A stretch of DNA of 64,000 nucleotides from Elusimicrobiota bacterium (GTDB lineage Bacteria; Elusimicrobiota; Elusimicrobia; F11): NCBI GenBank assembly GCA_044221725.1, contig JBGAON010000001.1, positions 32,001 through 96,000 of the forward strand, written 5' to 3'. Under the pieces are notes generated by a model. The model saw only the letters and a program-made list of their open reading frames with translations, did not search any database and was not told the origin of the DNA. Numbering within the stretch: the stretch's first letter is position 1; every line of letters starts with the position of its first letter. Positions 53,275 to 64,000 of the stretch are shown piece after piece. Position numbers and translations under genes: made by a program.

Positions 53275-53970
53275 TCATCTGCGAGCTATTACGAACAAGA
53301 CAAGCCCCAAAAGAGAGACGATAAAAATCCCGAAAGTCATTGTGGTCAGGACCAAATCTCGGACCTGGCGATTTTCAATAAACGCCAGCTTGTGAAAGTT
53401 ACTGAAGATATTTGACTGAAGCTGACGTTGATCGTCCGTATGCCGCGTTACGCTGCCGGTCAGACTTGAGACATAAAGCCGCGTCCCTTTTCCGTCGTCT
53501 GCGTCGAAGCGGTAAACGGGAAGCATCCGATAGATATTCAGATACTCCCGGTTGAACTGCGTAAGATAATCCGCCTTTCTCACGGGCATTCCACCGAGGA
53601 ATCCGGACGCGATCTGAGCGGCGTAGACTTCATCCTGACTTGCGTCAGCAACCCCCGTAACGGCATTCACATAGACCGGTTTTTCCTGCTCTCTAATAAG
53701 AACCTGATACCACGGAATTCCTTCAATTGATCTGACATTGAGCGCTTGGATGTTCGTTTTATGACCTTCTGGAAGGCGGGCAAGGACCGCGATGGGCGCG
53801 ATCTTGACGGCGGACAACGCCACCGCCCCCGCGGGTCTCGCGGGGGGCGGCGGAGTTTGCGTCCGGCTCATCACGTTATGGATGACGCCGCTTCCTGAAG
53901 AAACGAGCGCCGACAGACAAAAGACAATGCCGAGCCACCGGTGCAATTTTCTTACAAGAATTGATTTCAT
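53275..53970 (-). CDS. PepSY-associated TM protein
   Basis: RKLHRWLG, VYVNAVTG, LYVSSLTG and FSNFHKL. Confidence 0.8.
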   Translation of the reverse strand: MKSILVRKLHRWLGIVFCLSALVSSGSGVIHNVMSRTQTPPPPARPAGAVALSAVKIAPIAVLARLPEGHKTNIQALNVRSIEGIPWYQVLIREQEKPVYVNAVTGVADASQDEVYAAQIASGFLGGMPVRKADYLTQFNREYLNIYRMLPVYRFDADDGKGTRLYVSSLTGSVTRHTDDQRQLQSNIFSNFHKLAFIENRQVRDLVLTTMTFGIFIVSLLGLVLFVIARR

Positions 53971-53979
53971 GTCACGCTC

Positions 53980-56091
53980 CTAGAAATTCCACTCGATGCC
54001 GCCGTAAACGGAACGGCCATCGGCTGGAAGGAATTGCGCCGAGTCGGCGCCGTTGGCGTTGGCTATCACACCAGTGGTGCCGGCGTAGATTTTGTCGCCA
54101 AGGTTTCTGGCGTCCACAAAGATGGACAACCCTTTGCGCGGCCGGTAACCGGCTTTGAATCCCCACGATGAATAAGGATCGGCGAAGAACGTGTTTTTGT
54201 GGTCAATCGGGAACCGTACCGGAACCCATTCAATGCTGGGACCACCGTACCAACCAGTAGGATGCTCGTATTGCAGTTCGGCCTGATAAATCTGACCTGG
54301 AACTCCGGCGAGGTCGTTGGTGCCGTACACTGGATCATTGTCAAAGGTGAAATGATTGATGGTATAGGCCTGCCGCAATACCACCTGATCCGCCTCTCCA
54401 TCAGAGGTCAAAAGACCGCGCAGCAAAGCCAAATCCAATCCTGCTTCGACGCCTTCATGGATGGTTTCGTTGGCGTTGACGGTGCCAAGAGGATTACCGG
54501 CGGCATCTGTCAAACTGAGCAGCTCATCTTTGACCAATGCGTGATAAACGGAAACATCCCACCTGGCTATGTTTCTCTGCCCTCTCGTGCCCACCTCAAA
54601 CGTGGTCGCGGTCTGCGCGTCCAACTTCACCAGCCCGCCGTTCACGTTGTTTCCTACCAACTCGCCGAACGAGGGCGGCTCAAAACTTCGGGCGATATTG
54701 GTATAGATTTGATCTCTGGAGTTGAATTCATAGCGGGCCCCGATTTTTGGGCTGAAGCCACTGTAGGTTTGCGTATCGCTGTTGTCTTTATCGCTTGGGG
54801 TCACAGGCATGTTGTCTTCGTTTTTTCGTTCCGCATAAGCGGCTTGCGCACCGACGCCAATAGCCAAGGCCTTTGTCACGTAGATTTGATTCTCCACAAA
54901 CGCCTCGGCGTTGGTTGACGTTTGGTCGGAATCGCCGGTCTGCGCTCCGCGCCCCCCCGATACGTTGACATAGCGTTGGTCGCGCGTAACACCAACCGAC
55001 GGCGTGATGCCGGCCATGAACCGGTTGCGACGACCCAACCATTCGTTGACGTTGGTGTAGGCGGCGGTGACACCGGCGTCGTTGGTAAGTTGATCAATCA
55101 CCTGAAAGATCGGGTGATCGAGATGTTTCCAGGAATAATAACCGCTCAAGTCAAAACGTTGACCATTCCCAGCAAACGTCGTCTTGTTGGCGAGACGGAA
55201 CAAGTTGAAGTCCCGCTTCTGATCGCCAGAGATATTTGCGGCATTGGCTTGGCGCGGATCTCTATTCATCTGGGCTTTGGTCAAGCTCCCTGGCAATTCA
55301 GAGTCGGTTCGGACATAGGTCAGGTACGTCCGATTCTCTGTGTTTCCCGAGAAGCGATGGCCAAAGTTCCCAAAGAAACGCTGGGTGTTCTGCCGGCTGT
55401 GTTCTCGAAAGCCGTCCTGATAGAACTCCGACAAGGATCCGTAGTAATCGCTGTCTCCTATGACGCGTCCGGAACTCAACTGTCCCCGATGGTATTGATA
55501 ACTGCCGCCTTCGTATCTCGCTTGAAACGGCGAGGATGTGCGGCCGGTCCGACTCACATAGTTGATCGCGCCACCCAAGTTGGCCGCTCCGAATTCAAGC
55601 GCATTAGCGCCACGGTAAACCTCAATGTATCGCACGGAGAGTGGATCCAAGGCCTGAAAATCAAAACCTCCGTCCGCCAAGTTAATGGGAGCACCGTCTT
55701 GCAAGACTTTGATCCCGCGACCATGAAACGTGCGTTGCAGGCCGGAACCTCGAATGGAAAGACGGGCTTCTTCTGCGCCAAATCTAGGCTGCGCGTACAC
55801 GCCGGGGACCAGTTTCAGTGAATCGGCCACGGTTGATGCCCGGCCTTTGCGAGTATTATCCGCATCGACCACACTCGCACCGCCCATGACTTTGTTGACT
55901 TGGTTGGACTTCTGCTGAAGGGAAGGAACGGTATCGGAAGACAATCCTTGGGCTTCAACGACCACCTCGGGTATTTCAATGGGACTATCAGCGGCTCTCA
56001 TACAAACCGCCGCAAAGACAATAACTGACATGACTCCAGCCAAGCGCTTCAAACGCTGGGCAAAAGCCGCATAGATTCTGTGACTAGGCAT
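53980..56091 (-). CDS. TonB-dependent outer-membrane receptor
   Basis: EVVVEA TonB box, plug LKLVPGV...LSIRGSG...DGAP...IEVYRG...LGGAINYV, C-terminal aromatic EWNF; AGGAG SD before ATG 56091. Confidence 0.93.
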   Translation of the reverse strand: MPSHRIYAAFAQRLKRLAGVMSVIVFAAVCMRAADSPIEIPEVVVEAQGLSSDTVPSLQQKSNQVNKVMGGASVVDADNTRKGRASTVADSLKLVPGVYAQPRFGAEEARLSIRGSGLQRTFHGRGIKVLQDGAPINLADGGFDFQALDPLSVRYIEVYRGANALEFGAANLGGAINYVSRTGRTSSPFQARYEGGSYQYHRGQLSSGRVIGDSDYYGSLSEFYQDGFREHSRQNTQRFFGNFGHRFSGNTENRTYLTYVRTDSELPGSLTKAQMNRDPRQANAANISGDQKRDFNLFRLANKTTFAGNGQRFDLSGYYSWKHLDHPIFQVIDQLTNDAGVTAAYTNVNEWLGRRNRFMAGITPSVGVTRDQRYVNVSGGRGAQTGDSDQTSTNAEAFVENQIYVTKALAIGVGAQAAYAERKNEDNMPVTPSDKDNSDTQTYSGFSPKIGARYEFNSRDQIYTNIARSFEPPSFGELVGNNVNGGLVKLDAQTATTFEVGTRGQRNIARWDVSVYHALVKDELLSLTDAAGNPLGTVNANETIHEGVEAGLDLALLRGLLTSDGEADQVVLRQAYTINHFTFDNDPVYGTNDLAGVPGQIYQAELQYEHPTGWYGGPSIEWVPVRFPIDHKNTFFADPYSSWGFKAGYRPRKGLSIFVDARNLGDKIYAGTTGVIANANGADSAQFLPADGRSVYGGIEWNF

Positions 56092-56121
56092 ATTTTCTCC
56101 TAATGAAAAAATGGACATGAC

Positions 56122-56143
56122 CCGCCTTATGGGAATAAGGCGG
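56122..56143 (-). promoter_or_regulatory. Perfect hairpin in the leader between the Cys-rich ORF and the TBDR
   Basis: CCGCCTTAT-N4-ATAAGGCGG, about 20 nt upstream of the TBDR SD. Confidence 0.5.
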
Positions 56144-56212
56144 ATCGCTATAGGCCAGAAAACCAAGAACACGGTTCTCAGGTCTTAATCAAGAAATGAT
56201 CTGGAAGAAACG

Positions 56213-56650
56213 TTAGGAGAGAACGATTTCGGGAGGAGGAGTTAAGACTTCTCGAATGGGGGAAGGCAAATTGAGTTGCGAAGCATGGAAAATAAGACTT
56301 GATAGGCCCGGATCGTCGGGGCAAAGAGATCCAATAATCCATGATGTCGGCCTACTTATCAGGGACCGCTCCTGGAATGCCAAAGCGGAAACCGGATCTT
56401 TTGGAGTAAGACTACAAACCGAAAGTGGTTGCTCACAACCATTTGAAGCTTTCGGGCGTTTGGCGGGAACGCCGCAATGAGATGCCGCGTCCTCCTTCAT
56501 TTTTTTAATCATTGGCTTGCACATCTCTGGGCAGCAACAAGCGTGGCCGCAGATAACGCAATCTTCAGAAGGTTTTTGAGAGAAGGCGTTTACTGGGCCG
56601 GATGGAATGAGCAATGAAACTACGAGAAATAATCTTAGTCCGAACCGCAT
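56213..56650 (-). CDS. Cys-rich secreted leader-type protein (DUF2946/CruR/CutF-like)
   Basis: Signal peptide, CVICGHACCCPEMC and C-terminal REVLTPPPE; directly upstream of a TBDR. Confidence 0.6.
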   Translation of the reverse strand: MRFGLRLFLVVSLLIPSGPVNAFSQKPSEDCVICGHACCCPEMCKPMIKKMKEDAASHCGVPAKRPKASNGCEQPLSVCSLTPKDPVSALAFQERSLISRPTSWIIGSLCPDDPGLSSLIFHASQLNLPSPIREVLTPPPEIVLS

Positions 56651-56672
56651 CGCACTCAGATTACTATTTGCG

Positions 56673-59117
56673 TCAACTCATCGATGCGGGAATCTCGCTT
56701 TGCCTGATGTAGTCGAGAACAGCCTTCGGAGATTTCAAATCAAGCAGAGCATCGATACGCTTTGGCTCTTGGAAAAAAGATGAAACGCTCGCCAAAAAGT
56801 TTAAGTGGAGCTTCGGATCTTCGGCTGGACTTATAAAAAGAAGCCATACATGCAATGGATTCTCAGCCGTGATTCCCAGAGCGACCTGCAAGTGTTTTAA
56901 ACCTGCCACACGAGCGTGAGGAATAGCCACAGACTCACCGATCAGCGTTGGACCTGCCTTTTCACGACTTAAGACAGATTGCATAGCCTGAGACGGGTTC
57001 GGCAGACTCAGTCGCCTTAACAACTCCTGGAGAATCTGATCCTTGGAAAGCCCGCTCTGAAGGATCACTATCCGCTCCTTTGCGAGAAAATCTCCGACTC
57101 GAACTCGCGCATCGGACGCAGGATTTTTGATCGCTTGCATTTCCATTTGCATTTCGGCGCGACCAATTTCCTCGCTCATCCGTGTGCTTTCGAGGGCCGC
57201 GCCGATTTCTGAGGCGAAGGTCTCCAGTAGTTGAAGCCTCTCCGGATCCATAAACACTTTTGCATCTTTTGGTCGGATGCCGAGAACGCCCGTTGTGGTT
57301 TTAATGCCTTTCATCGGCAAATATAGCCCGCGAGATCCCGAAAGAGTGTCGCTTCCTGCCCCGGCTATCTGAACCCGATCAAGGACCCATCTTGCCACGG
57401 ATAGTTCGTTTTCATTCCATTCAAAGCGAGTCGGATCTCCAGCCTTCACCTCCAAGTCGCCCTGCGATCCCGTGGTCAGGATGAGAATCGGTAGCCCATA
57501 GAACTCTTCTAACCGAGTTCGAGCTGTCTCAAACATTTGTTGGATGTTGGGGGTTTCGGATAGCTCACGGCTCAATTTATAAAGGACACGCATCCGCTCC
57601 GCCCGTTCTCGTGAGGCCTCGGTTTGTTGACGGAGACGGCCCGTGATCGTGCTAATAAGAAGTCCTGTGCCCAACATTATGACGAAGGTCAGAACATACT
57701 GGGTATCGGAGACGGCAAAGGTCAAATAGGGCGGCACAAAGAAAAAATCAAAGGCCAAAACACTTAAAACTGACGCGAGGATAGAAGCCTTTCGACCAAA
57801 ACGATAAGACGCGAACATGATGCCGAGCAAATAGATCATGACGATATTGACCAGTGGCAGGGTGTGAAAAAGTGGCCAACAAACCAACGTCGCAAGACCA
57901 ACCACCGCAGTTGCTTGTCCAACACCGGCCCAATCAGATGGAGTTGCAGTCGCGACGGGTCTTCGATCACTAAACTCCGGTCCAACTCCACTAATGATAT
58001 GTAGGTCGATATTCCCGCAACGCCGGGCCATATCGTTGACAATTGATCCAAATAACCATTCCTTCCACCTTGGATTGGCTGGTTTCCCCAATATGATCCT
58101 GGTAACGTTTCTGGATCGTGCGAAAGAAATAATTTCGTCCGTGATGTCATTTCCAGACAAAGTCACGGTTTCTGCTCCCAGTTTTTCCGCCATCCTCAAA
58201 TTATTGACAGCCCGAGCGCGTTCATCAGTGGAAAGCTGCAAGTAAGCAGGTGTTTCCACAAGAACGGCAATCCATTCCGCTCGAAGCCGCGTTGCCATAC
58301 GACTTGCCGCCCTTATCAGCCGAGCCGACATTGGGCTCGCACTGACACCGACAAGAAGCCTTTCACCCACCTGCCACACGTCAGAAATAGAATGACGCTC
58401 CTTGAACGCTTGCATCTGCGCGTCGACTCGTTCAGCTGTATGTCGCAGCGCGAGTTCGCGGAGCGCGATAAGGTTTCCTGGTTGAAAGAAGTTTTCTGCC
58501 GCTCTACCCGCCAATTCATTCTTGTAGACTTTTCCTTCTCTTAGTCGAGTAAGAAGATCCTCGGGTGCTAAATCCACAAGCTCTAGTTCGTGAACGCGTT
58601 GAAGAAAGGTATCAGGGACCGTTTCTCGAACCGTCACACCCGTAATTTGGGCTACCACATCATTCAATGTCTCCCAATGCTGGACGTTGAGCGTGGTATA
58701 AACGTCGACCCCTGCATCCAACAATTCTTCGACATCTTGCCAGCGTTTCGCATGACGTAGCCCTTCGGCATTCGTGTGAGCCAGCTCATCTACCACGATC
58801 AAGCGTGGGTGGCGCGTCAACGCGCCGTCTAAATCGAATTCCTTTAAGACAACGCCTTTGTAGGAGATCTCCTTGCGAGGCAAAATCTCGAACCCTTCGA
58901 GAAGCGCTTCGGTTTCTGTTCTGCCGTGCGTTTCGGCGAGGCCGATGACCACATCCCACCCTTCTTTTTTTCGCTGCCGGGCGGCTTCCAACATGGCATA
59001 GGTCTTGCCGACGCCAGGACTCGCGCCGAAAAACAACTTCAGCTGGCCTCGACCAGCGATTTCCTCGTCGGCCTGGACGTGTTTGAGAAGTTGATCTGGA
59101 TTAGGTCTTTGATCCAT
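56673..59117 (-). CDS. kdpD: Atypical KdpD: KdpD-Usp-TM-GAF sensor fused to a PTS EIIA domain instead of a kinase core
   Basis: [31 protein letters not shown] and AFDFFFVPP; after the GAF there is no H-box or HATPase, but [19 protein letters not shown] (EIIA) at about 56676-57104. Confidence 0.88.
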
Positions 59118-59691
59118 GAGAGTCCTCATCCAAATTAAGATTCAACTTCAGAACATTCACGCGGGGCTCGCCAAGAAGCCCTAGGAAACGGCCTTGGGTG
59201 TTTTTCTGAATCAATGACTCGACAACCGCCTCAGGAAGTCCACGAACGCGTGCAATTCGCTTTAACTGATATTGGGCAGTGGCTGGTGTGATATGAGGAT
59301 CCAACCCGCTGGCCGACGCCGTGATCAGGTCGACCGGAATCTTTTCTCTATTTTCCGGGTCATTCTTTCGCAACGCATCAATGCGGTCCTGTACGGATTT
59401 AATAAGCGCGGGATTAAGCGGGCCCAAGTTCGACCCTGACGACGCAGCTCCATTGTAAGGAACCGGTCCCGTCGCCGACAGCCGTCCCCAAAAATACTTG
59501 GGATCATCAAAGGATTGGCCAATGAGTTCTGAACCGACTGCTTTCCCGTCTTTCAAAATAAGACTTCCATTCGCCTCATGCGGGAAAAGTGCTTGCGCCA
59601 GCCCCGTCACAGCAAACGGATACACGACTCCAGTGAGAACCGAAAGAACGACGAGTGTGCGAACAGAAATTATGAGTTGTTCAATATACAT
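59101..59691 (-). CDS. kdpC: K+-transporting ATPase subunit C
   Basis: [30 protein letters not shown] and VNVLKLN. Confidence 0.96.
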
Positions 59692-59717: not shown

Positions 59718-61787
59718 TTATGCCAAACCCATCGCGACAAGCAATAGATCAATCGCCTTGATGCCGATAAAAGGCGCAATCAATCCGCCGATGCCATAAA
59801 TCAGAATATGGTCACGAAGCAAACGGCTTGCGCCCAATGCCCGATACTTCACTCCTTGCAGAGATAACGGGATGAGCAGAACAATGATGATCGCATTAAA
59901 TATCACAGCGGAGAGAATGGCGCTCGTCGGCGTAGCAAGGTGCATAATGTTGAGTGCGCCAAGAGCGGGGTAAATCCCAACAAATGCCGCAGGGATGATC
60001 GCAAAATACTTTGAGACATCATTGGAGATGCTGAATGTCGTCAAAGCGCCACGCGTGATCAAGAGCTGTTTGCCAATTTCCACGATTTCGATGAGCTTCG
60101 TCGGATTGGAATCGAGGTCAACCAGATTTCCCGCTTCTTTGGCTGCTTGCGTTCCGGTATTCATCGCGACCGCAACATCGGCTTGAGCGAGGGCCGGCGC
60201 GTCGTTGGTTCCATCTCCTGTCATGGCGACCAGGCGGCCACCGCTTTGCGTGTCGCGAATCAATTTCAATTTTGTTTCCGGTGTGGCCTGAGCCAGAAAA
60301 TCGTCGACTCCGGCTTCCGCCGCGATGGCGGCGGCGGTTAAAGGGTTATCGCCAGTAATCATGATGGTCTTGATCCCCATACGGCGAAGTTCCACAAAGC
60401 GTTCCTTGATTCCTCCCTTGACGATGTCTTTCAAGTGAATCACGCCAAGAACTTTGTCGCGATCCGCCACAAGGAGAGGCGTTCCACCCGACTTCGCAAT
60501 CGTTTCTACTGCCACTTTTACACTGGCGGGATAGTCACCGCCTTGTTCCTTCACATATGCCTCAACGGCATCCGCCGCTCCTTTGCGAATGTGGCGACCG
60601 TCGCTTAGGTCCACACCGCTCATGCGCGTCTGCGCGGTGAATGGAATAAAATTTGCTCCTATTTCATGAACCTGCCGCTCCCGAATGCCGTATTTCTCCT
60701 TTGCGAGGACAACAATGCTCCGTCCCTCCGGCGTTTCATCGGATAAAGAGGAAATCTGGGCGGCGTCCGCCAATATTTCTGGCGCTATTCCATCGGAAGC
60801 GACGAACGCCACCGCTTGCCGATTTCCAAGGGTAATGGTGCCGGTCTTGTCCAAGAGAAGAACATCAACGTCTCCAGCCGCCTCGACGGCGCGTCCCGAC
60901 ATCGCGATCACATTGGCCTGAATCATCCGGTCCATTCCCGCAATGCCGATGGCCGGGAGCAACCCTCCAATTGTCGTTGGAATCAGGCAAACCAAGAGCG
61001 CCACAAGCACGGTCACAGTCACAGGCGATCCTGTTCCAGCCGCGCTGACGCTATAAATCGAAAAAGGAAGCAACGTGACGGTCGCAAAAAGAAAAATGAT
61101 CGTCATGCCAGCCAAGAGAATGTTGAGAGCGATCTCGTTTGGAGTTTTTTGACGTTTCGCTCCCTCCACCATATTGATCATCCGGTCAAGAAACGTCTCT
61201 CCTGGATTGGATGTAATCTTTACGACCAGCCAATCAGAGAGAACTTGTGTTCCTCCCGTGACTGCGCTCCGGTCACCACCCGCTTCCCGGATGACTGGCG
61301 CGGACTCGCCAGTAATGGCCGCTTCATTGACTGAAGCCACCCCTTCAATAATCTCTCCGTCCATCGGGATGATATCGCCGGCTTCAACCAGAACAACGTC
61401 TCCAGCTCGCAATGTGGAGGCCGACACAACGACCGGTTTATTTGATCCTCTTTTGCCGTTCAGTAATTTTTTCGCAGGTGTGTCTTGGCGCGCTTTCCTA
61501 AGGTTTGCGGCCTGCGCTTTTCCTCTTCCTTCCGCCATCGCCTCCGCAAAATTCGCAAATAGAACCGTGAACCATAGCCATAAGGAGATAGACAAAATAA
61601 ATCCCGCAGGCGCCTCACCGCTTCCGGTTAACGCTTGAACAAACAATCCCGTGGTCAGCATGCTTCCAACCCAGACGACGAACATCACAGGATTCTTTAT
61701 TTGATGTTTTGGATTCAGTTTCCTGAGAGATTCCAGAAAAGCCGGTCCGACGACAGATGAATCAAAAAGCTTGTGTGTTTTTCTCAT
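59718..61787 (-). CDS. kdpB: K+-transporting ATPase subunit B (P-type ATPase)
   Basis: [21 protein letters not shown] and [14 protein letters not shown] overlap with kdpA. Confidence 0.97.
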
Positions 61788-63517
61788 GATAAATACTCCA
61801 CGATCGGCCCCAGAGCGAGAGCCGGAAAAAAGGTTAGGGCTCCCACAATGAGAATCACCGAAGCCAGAAAGAAAACAAAAAGCGGCGTATGAGTCGGCAA
61901 TGTCCCGGAGCTTGGCGGCACAACTTTTTTCTTGGCCAGCGACCCTGCCATCGCCAACACAGGAATGGCGATCCAATAGCGCGAAAAAAACATCGCGAGT
62001 CCCAGCCATAGGTTATAGAAAGGCGTGTTGGCTCCGAGTCCAGCAAAAGCGCTTCCGTTGTTATTACCCGCCGAAGAAAAAGCATAAAGCACTTCGCTAA
62101 ATCCATGCGCTCCGGGATTAAAAATCGTGGCCTTGCCCGCTGGTGAAACGACCGCAATTGCGGTTCCTCCAAGGACGAGAAGACACGGCACCAAAATACC
62201 AATGGATGCCATCTTCATTTCATAGGCTTCGATTTTCTTGCCCAAATACTCCGGCGTGCGGCCGACCATGAGCCCGGCGATAAAAACCGCAATGACCGCA
62301 AATAGAAGCATCCCGTAAAGTCCTGATCCGACACCTCCGAAGACAACTTCTCCGAGCTGCATCAAGATCATTGGAACGAGTCCACCCAACGGCGTATAGG
62401 AATCGTGCATGGAATTCACGGAGCCATTGGAAGCGGCGGTTGTTGCCGTCGCCCAAATCGCCGAACTTACGATCCCATAGCGGACTTCCTTGCCTTCCAT
62501 GTTTCCGCCCGACTGGAGCGCCGATGCAGCCTGATCGACATCTAATTTGGCAAGCAGAGGATTTCCAGATTGTTCCTGAGCAACACAGAGCCATAACGCC
62601 GGCACAAAGAGGACCAGCATGACTGCCTCAAGAGCCCACCCTTGTCGAGTGTCCTTGACCATAACGCCGAACGTGTAGCACAGCGCTGCAGCGATCAATA
62701 GGATCGAAAGCGACTGGAGGAAATTTGAAAGCGGTGTGGGATTCTCAAATGGATGGGCCGAATTGACATTGAAGTAACCACCCCCATTGGTTCCCAGTTG
62801 CTTAATAGCGATTTGGGAAGCGGCCGGCCCTACAGCCAACGTCTGTTCGCTGATTGGTTTTCCATTGCTATCCATAAAAGGTTGAAGAAGCGCGACTGTT
62901 TGACTGGGCCGAAATGTCTGCACCACGCCCTGCGAAACCAATCCCATCGCTAGTAAAAGTGACATGGGCATCAGGATGTAGATTGTGCTTCGAACCATGT
63001 CCACCCAGAAATTTCCGATGACCTTCGCTTCACGCCGGACGAATCCACGAATCAAAGCAACCAGAACCGCCATACCGCTGGCCGCTGAAACAAAGTTCTG
63101 CACAGTCAAACCCAGCATTTGTGTGAGATAGCTCATGGTTGTTTCGCCGCCGTATCCTTGCCAGTTGGTGTTCGTGGCAAAACTCACAGCTGTATTGAAG
63201 GCGGAATCCGGCGTTACAGGACCCATGGCCATCGGGTTCAAAGGCAAATGCTGCTGAACCCGTTGAAGCAAATAGACAATTAAAAGTCCTGCAAAGTTGA
63301 AGATCATCATTGCGAAGGCATAGGTTTTCCAATTCATCTCTTCTCTGCGAACACCTGATAACCGGTAAATAAGTCGTTCGATGGGACCAAGAATCTTATC
63401 GATCCACATTGGCTGGCCTTCGTAAACCTTGGCCATGTAAAGCCCAACAGGCTTGACCAGTAGAATCAGAACGCCAAGATAAACGGCGCACTGAATCAAA
63501 TTATTTGAGTTCGTCAG
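61784..63517 (-). CDS. kdpA: K+-transporting ATPase subunit A (start CTG 63517 or TTG 63499)
   Basis: [35 protein letters not shown] and NNGSAFAG. Confidence 0.96.
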
Positions 63518-63603
63518 AAGACCTCCGGCTTAAGCAACGCCACGAAAAGGTAAATCAGAATTAGAAATGACGTGACAGCCCCGATCCAATAAATAAGAGT
63601 CAT
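63514..63603 (-). CDS. kdpF: K+-transporting ATPase subunit F (absent from the ORF track)
   Basis: [29 protein letters not shown], matching the YLxxALxxPExF signature; AAGGAG SD. Confidence 0.9.
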   Translation of the reverse strand: MTLIYWIGAVTSFLILIYLFVALLKPEVF

Positions 63604-63616
63604 AGAAATAATCTCC

Positions 63617-63697
63617 TTAAATCTTTTCGAAGAGCAATATGAGCCCCACGGACAAAACGCCCAACCCAAGAATAAGGCTAATGTAAACGATGTCCAT
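63617..63697 (-). CDS. 26-aa hydrophobic peptide upstream of kdpF
   Basis: AAGGAG SD; MDIVYISLILGLGVLSVGLILLFEKI*; its stop abuts the kdpF SD. Confidence 0.7.
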   Translation of the reverse strand: MDIVYISLILGLGVLSVGLILLFEKI

Positions 63698-63980
63698 CTT
63701 GATTCTCCTTTTCGGGTGAGATTCGCTCTTCGGTTTCCTTCTTCTCGACTAAGTGTTTTAACCGTTCCTCATCTCGTTCTAAATTGCTCAAAACGCGAGC
63801 CAAGCGGTCCGCATTCGCTTCAAGTTTCTGCATAACCTGATCAACTCGTGGAGAGAGTTGGTGTTCTTGCGTTCGAGGCTCCTCTTTTTCGATCAGTGTC
63901 GATGGAGGCCAAACCGCAAAAACTGTTCGCGCAACTGTGAAGGTTCCCACGATGAATAGAAACGAAATAATTCTTTTCAT
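63678..63980 (-). CDS. Hypothetical secreted coiled-coil protein at the head of the kdp operon
   Basis: Signal peptide MKRIISFLFIVG..., heptad-like body; overlaps the next sORF. Confidence 0.55.
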   Translation of the reverse strand: MKRIISFLFIVGTFTVARTVFAVWPPSTLIEKEEPRTQEHQLSPRVDQVMQKLEANADRLARVLSNLERDEERLKHLVEKKETEERISPEKENQDGHRLH

Positions 63981-64000
63981 GAGTACAAGATAACTCAGCT

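Follow-up and report, generated by a model that had tools for sequence, protein, structure and literature searches.

The window analyzed here, a 64,000-nucleotide stretch of an Elusimicrobiota genome (assembly GCA_044221725.1, contig JBGAON010000001.1, positions 32,001 to 96,000 of the forward strand), carries on its minus strand a kdp potassium-pump operon. The final gene of this operon, here called kdpD1 (56673-59117), encodes in a single stop-free frame an 814-aa chain (P0001) in which the serine-kinase, Usp, four-helix membrane, and GAF parts of KdpD are continued by an EIIA domain of the phosphotransferase system (PTS). The fusion is real, and sequence comparison indicates that it is conserved and under purifying selection. 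The reading that we favor, with confidence a little better than even, is that KdpD is split here into two membrane chains, that kdpD1 would brake the KdpFABC pump by serine phosphorylation, and that the PTS would set this brake through the EIIA domain.

Split KdpD, the serine-kinase brake, and the control of KdpD by PtsN are each known, and it is their union in one chain, and on two kinase lineages, that is new. No KdpD-EIIA fusion was found in the literature searched, most subscription journals and part of the supplement of PMC11018627 being beyond reach, and automatic annotation hides the family under names such as "sensor histidine kinase KdpD" or "DUF4118 protein".

Domain Structure of the Fusion Protein

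A Pfam scan of the protein gives a KdpD domain at residues 23-231 (58425-59051, E 1e-93), a Usp domain at 253-367 (58017-58361), DUF4118, which is the four-helix membrane bundle, at 402-505 (57603-57914), GAF_3 at 548-643 (57189-57476), and PTS_EIIA_2 at 677-806 (56700-57089), all on the minus strand. The EIIA match has an E value of 1e-18 and 67.7 bits against a cut-off of 27; the GAF_3 match, with 26 bits, lies slightly below its 27-bit cut-off. Neither HisKA nor HATPase_c has a match in the same scan. Apart from the borderline GAF score, the domain order and the lack of histidine-kinase domains proposed in a preliminary description of the DNA are thus borne out. Its term "kinase-less" holds for HisKA and HATPase_c, but not for the N-terminal serine kinase, the motifs of which are intact.

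The likeness to KdpD stops in the exit helix of the GAF domain and the linker behind it (57090-57188, minus strand), where the DHp would start near residue 667 (~57117). Similarity to Salmonella KdpD runs to about residue 667 and ends immediately ahead of the H-box SHDLRTPL, and the canonical KdpD profile PRK10490 is matched to position 666 of 895 only, with 660 bits against a cut-off of 1123, so that the chain fails as a canonical KdpD. The GC content is uniform over the domains (0.49-0.53).

The EIIA domain has the properties of a type 2 EIIA of the PTS, namely PF00359 above cut-off and the phospho-acceptor histidine. This residue, His734, is encoded by CAC at 56916-56918, exactly the codon predicted beforehand, and aligns with the histidine of the solved PtsN chains 3urr, 2a0j, and 1a6j. 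R718, E719, and H771 are also in place, and one loop is shorter than its PtsN counterpart by about 9 aa.

Assembly, Conservation, and Selection

The GAF-EIIA junction was checked in four sequencing runs. Two DNA runs of different studies, neither marked as a potential source, gave contigs that span it, one over 56415-57321 with 0 differences (X4) and the other over 57028-57488 with 24 differences (X9). Together with 33 homologues of the same architecture, these contigs rule out a chimeric assembly, the artifact against which the preliminary description had wanted the junction checked. RNA runs were set aside as evidence for transcription of kdpD1: pieces of the gene, including the EIIA part (X16), are covered, but the contigs have a depth of 2-6 and neighboring genes are covered too.

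The homologues stem from a search with residues 600-814, where EIIA is present in 33 of the 43 matches, 29 of them without DHp and four with a His-less pseudo-DHp. The remaining ten are two pseudo-DHp chains without EIIA and eight ordinary KdpDs. Named fusion members are mostly labelled Elusimicrobiota, two others being labelled Acidobacteriota (P0033) and Leptospiraceae (L059), and P0313 shares a 90% cluster with the protein of the window. When 401 Elusimicrobiota genomes were sampled, a strong KdpD-domain match was found in 49 and a GAF and an EIIA within one frame in six, the genome of the window among them.

Residues of the EIIA were counted in 42 rows with the fusion, of which 34 are proteins and 8 are locus frames, after removal of five duplicates and two repeated loci. 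His734 and Glu719 are found in 42/42, Arg718 in 41/42, and His771 in 39/42. The ratio of nonsynonymous to synonymous substitution rates (dN/dS) of the EIIA was computed for six pairs: the two closest gave 0.065 and 0.104, another gave 0.24, and three were saturated. The architecture is therefore not a singleton lacking purifying selection, which the preliminary description had named as a ground for giving up its claim.

These numbers also bear on the idea that the EIIA is a structural cap or a passenger that stabilizes the truncated chain. While its rapid divergence and the retention of the same operon by relatives without it would fit such a role, the near-invariance of His, Arg, and Glu in the membrane rows, the presence of the His motif in the 120 listed proteins of a soluble family (see below), and a dN/dS not above 0.10 for the two closest pairs make it hardly credible. 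The chain forms can be placed in a series, consisting of an intact H-box, a pseudo-DHp without CA, a pseudo-DHp with EIIA (~890 aa), EIIA without DHp (~812 aa), and chains ending at the GAF; from the sequences we infer a probable order of events along it.

Predicted Serine Kinase of kdpD1

The N-terminal KdpD domain is a predicted atypical serine kinase, and the roles of its motifs are taken from PMC11018627. The Walker A motif (G-X5-GKT) reads GASPGVGKT, including G37-K38-T39, and is kept in 32/32 membrane-form chains that have the N-terminus. The Walker B pair D110/E111 (D109/E110 in E. coli) is invariant in 25/25 and again in 32/32 membrane-form chains. As to the counterparts of the adenine pair W39/R190, R191 is invariant, while the aromatic position, Y40 in kdpD1, is Tyr in 31 of the 32 chains and Phe in one, Salmonella KdpD also having Phe.

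The serine kinase of E. coli KdpD phosphorylates KdpB, and a variant lacking residues 663-894, that is, without DHp and CA, still phosphorylates the KdpB serine (PMC11018627). The point where the KdpD likeness of kdpD1 ends coincides with the cut in this active construct, and kdpD1 is, judged by its sequence, the natural counterpart of the construct with an EIIA added. In addition, kdpD1 directly follows kdpC, a position noted for serine-kinase chains in the same study, where the regulation of the serine kinase is said to need further characterization (PMC11018627). The predicted target is the serine of the TGES motif of KdpB (59718-61784, minus strand); this motif is general to such ATPases and is thus necessary but not specific.

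Deinococcus geothermalis likewise has, behind its pump genes, a serine-kinase chain that lacks a histidine kinase, namely the short KdpD-Usp protein described by NCBIfam NF038185 (KdpD_non_kinase). Unlike that protein, kdpD1 has TM (transmembrane), GAF, and EIIA parts, and it reaches 376.8 bits against the 550 of the model, which leaves it outside the family.

The Usp domain of S. aureus KdpD has the cyclic di-AMP (c-di-AMP) motif SXS-X20-FTAXY (PMC4686210). The corresponding segment of kdpD1 is SAS-X20-WIAVL, where WIAVL replaces FTAXY and the essential Tyr is absent, and it resembles the RxxxR-X8-WxAV of E. coli. The S. aureus motif is thus lacking; this Usp domain might bind c-di-AMP in another mode. 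The genome encodes a diadenylate cyclase, and no Rfam match to a c-di-AMP riboswitch is present in the loci L015 or L016.

Partner Histidine Kinase and KdpE

In the preliminary description, KdpD-KdpE signaling was taken to be absent, with the EIIA as output in its stead. The absence is an artifact of the window edge. The gene for a 234-aa KdpE-like response regulator lies 74 bp past this edge (G000:C3 96074-96778) and is adjoined by kdpD2 (G000:C3 96762-98246), which encodes a 494-aa DUF4118-GAF-HisKA-HATPase kinase with the intact H-box SHDLRTPL. Both genes are located on the kdpFABC strand, upstream of the pump genes, giving the order kdpD2 (histidine kinase)-kdpE-repeat-orf-orf-kdpFABC-kdpD1 (EIIA fusion), and a system missing kdpE is thereby ruled out. 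The best NCBIfam match of the regulator is KdpE, with 244 bits, below the cut-off of 325. A census of the genome gives one KdpD domain and five DUF4118 genes; of the genes that the preliminary description had thought worth searching for, kdpE is thus present, and the second kdpD is represented by the DUF4118-GAF histidine kinase kdpD2, with no second KdpD domain. The gene that follows kdpD1 (56213-56650) has no Pfam match, in keeping with the earlier statement that it is not a response regulator.

An H-box kinase and kdpE are likewise present at 11 of 13 other fusion loci; at one of the two remaining, kdpE is accompanied by a kinase fragment located at the edge of the locus, and the other is a contig of only 4.4 kb. 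Among the partner kinases of the 11 loci, four have no GAF match and one is cut at a contig end. A split of this kind has been catalogued in 33 of 5495 species, 28 of them in Bacillota (PMC11018627, 2024). With its separate intact-His kinase and kdpE, the present system agrees with the split class "Truncated DHpCA + TM/GAF/DHpCA", in which a KdpD-Usp-TM-GAF chain without a working histidine kinase, with Walker A and B kept, is accompanied by a separate TM-GAF-DHp-CA kinase. It differs from that class in that the C-terminal EIIA of kdpD1 takes the place of the whole DHp-CA. None of the 28 classes in the survey of PMC11018627 names EIIA, and the survey has no Elusimicrobiota row.

A candidate KdpE box, a TTAAC-N6-TTAAC repeat, lies between the window edge and kdpE (G000:C3 96027-96042, same strand). 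A TTAAC/T-N6-TTAAC/T repeat followed by AATGG stands after kdpE in 7 of 13 regions, with variants in two and none in four, and the exact repeat has two occurrences in the genome. Its place and its 11-bp period suggest that KdpE binds to it.

The TM-GAF parts of kdpD1 and kdpD2 are 35% identical. A quick tree places the 7 kinase halves with 7 full-length KdpDs from their phylum (99) and the EIIA chains in a separate clade (98). A recent duplication of kdpD with reciprocal loss is therefore unsupported.

Given such partner kinases, the EIIA could instead work in trans, as a tethered PtsN that binds the DHp or the GAF of kdpD2, maybe in a mixed complex formed through the TM-GAF parts; since this would place the operon, and with it the expression of the fusion, under the control of the fusion, a feedback loop would result. 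Unphosphorylated PtsN binds the DHp of KdpD in E. coli (review PMC8534201) and the GAF of KdpD in S. fredii (PMC9239096), and about 10% of alphaproteobacteria have a free ptsN in kdp operons (PMC13104625). The His-less pseudo-DHp that the ~890-aa forms retain ahead of EIIA could pair with the partner, but it is lost in the 812-aa forms, and the low identity of the TM-GAF parts and their separate clades also speak against action in trans. The genome also encodes, behind a second KdpD-like kinase/KdpE pair, a free EIIA that is 39% identical to the fused one; in the annotated loci, however, no EIIA was seen on a His-intact KdpD or on the partner kinase chain itself, and a KdpD-type kinase lies near the soluble EIIA form in only 1 of 27 loci. 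We regard action in trans as a serious but rather unlikely alternative.

Soluble KdpD-Usp-EIIA Family

A search with an EIIA profile gave 150 matches, 32 of which were domain-scanned. One KdpD-EIIA fragment without a membrane part led to a soluble KdpD-Usp-EIIA family of ~550 aa. Among the matches listed, PF00359 and the EIIA His motif are each present in 120/120, Walker A in 102/103, and Walker B in 100/103. The membrane form occurs in Elusimicrobiota and kin, whereas the soluble form spans many phyla, its record names including Tepidisphaerales, Phycisphaerales, Aminicenantes, Syntrophaceae, Desulfobacteraceae, Chlorobiales, Opitutaceae, Acidobacteriota, and Fibrobacteria. Soluble forms account for 27 of 81 loci; a kdp gene is found in 24 of these 27, the KdpD-type kinase in the one already mentioned, and a large unrelated kinase in 16. 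A full scan of two of the unrelated kinases identifies them as HAMP-PAS kinases accompanied by sigma-54 activators.

An approximately unbiased (AU) test, run on 59 hand-picked rows with a simpler model and with a group defined once an earlier tree had been seen, rejects a single clade for the kinase domains of the two families (p=0.006). For their EIIAs, a common origin cannot be rejected (p=0.705), so that two fusions from one EIIA stock and a transfer of the domain are indistinguishable. A few labels of the kinase-domain tree are wrong where loci are cut short (e.g., L143 and L158).

That the EIIA sits on the serine-kinase chain in both families is our main reason for seeing the target of the control in the pump brake rather than in transcription. 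More tentatively, and with somewhat less than even confidence, we propose that the two KdpD serine-kinase lineages carry a potassium-dedicated EIIA subfamily, the His phosphorylation of which would switch the serine phosphorylation of KdpB on or off. If so, the PTS would directly control the post-translational brake of Kdp through a His-to-Ser relay within one protein, and free PtsN would be predicted to tune the serine-kinase activity of E. coli KdpD as well.

PTS Proteins and Relatives of the EIIA

The genome contains the cluster ptsN-hprK-rapZ-hpr-ptsI, in which HPr has the His15 and Ser46 motifs, so that the products of the ptsH and ptsI genes considered in the preliminary description are both at hand. 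Its EI (enzyme I) gives no match to a GAF domain, and a glutamine-sensing input of the PtsP type is therefore not expected. EI and HPr are present in 24/24 carrier genomes, but HPr also occurs in 31/32 control genomes, and their co-occurrence was discarded as uninformative.

The preliminary description rightly pointed to the control of KdpD by PtsN, and then had K+, sensed through TM and GAF, alter the phosphorylation or exposure of the EIIA, with the PTS network or other PtsN targets as recipients. The EIIA does occupy the exact position of the transmitter, at the end of the GAF exit helix, and retains its active-site residues. On the other hand, the alternative to KdpD-KdpE signaling is not supported where the KdpD-type kinase, kdpE, and the repeat of 11-bp period are all present, and the soluble form has no K+-sensing TM and GAF parts. 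Moreover, phosphotransfer out of the EIIA is the weakest of the options raised, because no phospho-acceptor of PtsN is known according to a 2026 review (PMC13104625) and no match to an EIIC permease was found in the genome, which is 94% complete. We consider an output role very improbable; two further options that were raised, a direct action on KdpFABC and the activation in trans of a separate kinase, stay tenable.

In a tree, the fused EIIA clusters with free EIIAs from its own phylum, away from the PtsN-like gene of the genome (99/97). Seven of eight free EIIA genes of this clade follow an APC permease, one of which is KimA-like (E 9e-58, L043). This could mean that the EIIA touches a transporter directly, KdpB or another K+ carrier, with the KdpD chain as a membrane anchor and the serine kinase not involved. 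Unphosphorylated PtsN inhibits the K+/H+ antiporter YcgO (PMC11808508), PtsN binds TrkA (PMC13104625), and many high-scoring relatives in the EIIA profile search are cation/proton antiporter-EIIA fusions. However, no pump genes appear in the 16.8 kb covered at L039, a locus that does carry the kinase, kdpE, and the fusion, and the APC permease beside the free EIIA in the genome of the window has no match to a solved K+ transporter. Direct contact with a transporter is, in our view, improbable as the main role.

The free EIIA of this genome belongs to a module (L016:5895-10705, G000:C1, minus strand) that comprises the second KdpD-like kinase, a DUF4118-HisKA-HATPase protein that has no GAF, together with a KdpE-like regulator, the free EIIA, the APC permease, and a variant of the upstream repeat, and that may be another K+ uptake module. 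Genes for a dedicated EIIA, linked to kdp, also occur in L085, L101, and L112.

Several other arrangements of EIIA were noted. The free EIIA stands directly after the APC permease in L043, L044, L045, L046, L047, and L048, the pair in L048 adjoining kdpABC, and beside the pair in L045 lies an amino-acid permease with a C-terminal P-II domain (L045:1877-3781, minus strand). Antiporter fusions (P0057, P0068, P0076, P0083, P0088, and others) have two C-terminal EIIAs and ~870-900 aa. P0137 is an EIIA-DacZ_P-diadenylate cyclase fusion, and a CNNM-CBS-EIIA fusion, an ion-transport protein with EIIA, is encoded at L020:6528-8024 (G000:C1, minus strand), with a similar one in L095.

Proposed Mechanism

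In the mechanism that we favor, kdpD2 and KdpE very probably switch on transcription at low K+, and at high K+, which would be sensed through the TM and GAF parts of kdpD1 itself, the KdpD domain of this chain very probably phosphorylates the serine in the TGES motif of KdpB. It is plausible that His734 accepts phosphate from HPr. The phosphorylation state of the EIIA might then gate the serine kinase in the same chain or dimer by docking to the GAF, Usp, or kinase domain. As to the direction, the analogy with E. coli and rhizobia makes us lean slightly toward the unphosphorylated EIIA keeping the brake off and favoring K+ uptake. The best reading of the EIIA would thus be that of a PTS-controlled input on the brake rather than an output. 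The EIIA adjoins in kdpD1 the GAF, the domain bound by PtsN in S. fredii (PMC9239096).

A number of observations weigh against this mechanism. In the papers cited here, the effects of PtsN on KdpD bear on the histidine kinase and on transcription rather than on the serine kinase (PMC8534201, PMC13104625, PMC9239096), P. putida uses the phosphorylated, i.e., the opposite, form of PtsN (PMC13104625), and PtsN acts directly on a transporter (PMC11808508). The EIIA and the linker are the least conserved parts of the chain, the mean consensus being 0.61 for the EIIA vs 0.89 for the kinase, and close relatives with the same operon lack the EIIA (L055), which is thus dispensable. Against the PtsN model TIGR01419, the fused EIIA scores 41.2 bits with a cut-off of 138.7 and so does not qualify as an orthologue, although the PtsN-like gene of the genome is also below the cut-off (97 bits), making the score alone a weak test. 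The fused EIIA lacks the loop and has an isoelectric point of 9.1 vs 6.0 for the PtsN of the genome, two features that could weaken the docking of HPr. Since the soluble family has no GAF, a docking site shared by both families is conceivable only on the kinase or Usp domain, and the separation of the two kinase lineages depends on the selected rows and simpler model of the AU test.

Compared with KdpD and the free EIIA-Ntr (PtsN) of E. coli, S. fredii, and P. putida, the present system has the same input domains, EIIA His/Arg/Glu residues, and potassium-pump context, but its EIIA is joined covalently to a chain without histidine kinase and falls in a clade separate from that of PtsN. The alphaproteobacterial ptsN2 of kdp operons similarly represents a dedicated EIIA linked to kdp, but those are free PtsN-like proteins next to full-length KdpD (PMC13104625). 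Work on the control of KdpD by PtsN has dealt with transcription, and how PtsN is tied to potassium balance is still disputed (PMC13104625). An EIIA on the brake chain would link the brake of the pump to the metabolic state. The natural fusions, which put the EIIA on serine-kinase-only chains, offer a single-protein system for asking whether the PTS controls the pump brake, and because the published E. coli KdpFABC assay accepts foreign KdpD, the test would be direct.

Other Genes of the Region

The remaining operon genes are all on the minus strand. kdpC (59101-59691) overlaps the start of kdpD1, and kdpB is preceded by kdpA (61784-63499) and a 29-aa hydrophobic peptide (63514-63603) that is probably kdpF, named from its position and size. 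Ahead of it lie a reading frame for a 26-aa hydrophobic peptide (63617-63697), with a similar 26-aa start also found upstream of kdp in L038, and a 100-aa frame (63678-63980) with a hydrophobic N-terminus and no Pfam family above cut-off, which is the first gene past the promoter region. The window edge (63981-64000) lies within this likely promoter region.

A third gene of ~250 aa with a DUF4118-like membrane part and no kinase is present at L056:12663-13406, L057:4498-5292, L063:4639-5427, L067:3673-4440, and L111:1051-1827, that is, at four pseudo-DHp-EIIA loci and one full-length KdpD locus (L111). Downstream of kdpD1 (53275-56650, minus strand) are genes for a TonB-dependent receptor and a PepSY-type membrane protein, which come after a 145-aa cysteine-rich open reading frame and are apparently unrelated. 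Upstream of kdpD2 (L015:5555-17870; G000:C3 ~99.5-112 kb), translations judged by eye suggest a tyrosine-recombinase-like gene, an AAA ATPase with a subtilase-like neighbor, an amidase-like gene, and large tail-like genes, and this stretch is possibly the edge of a prophage or island.

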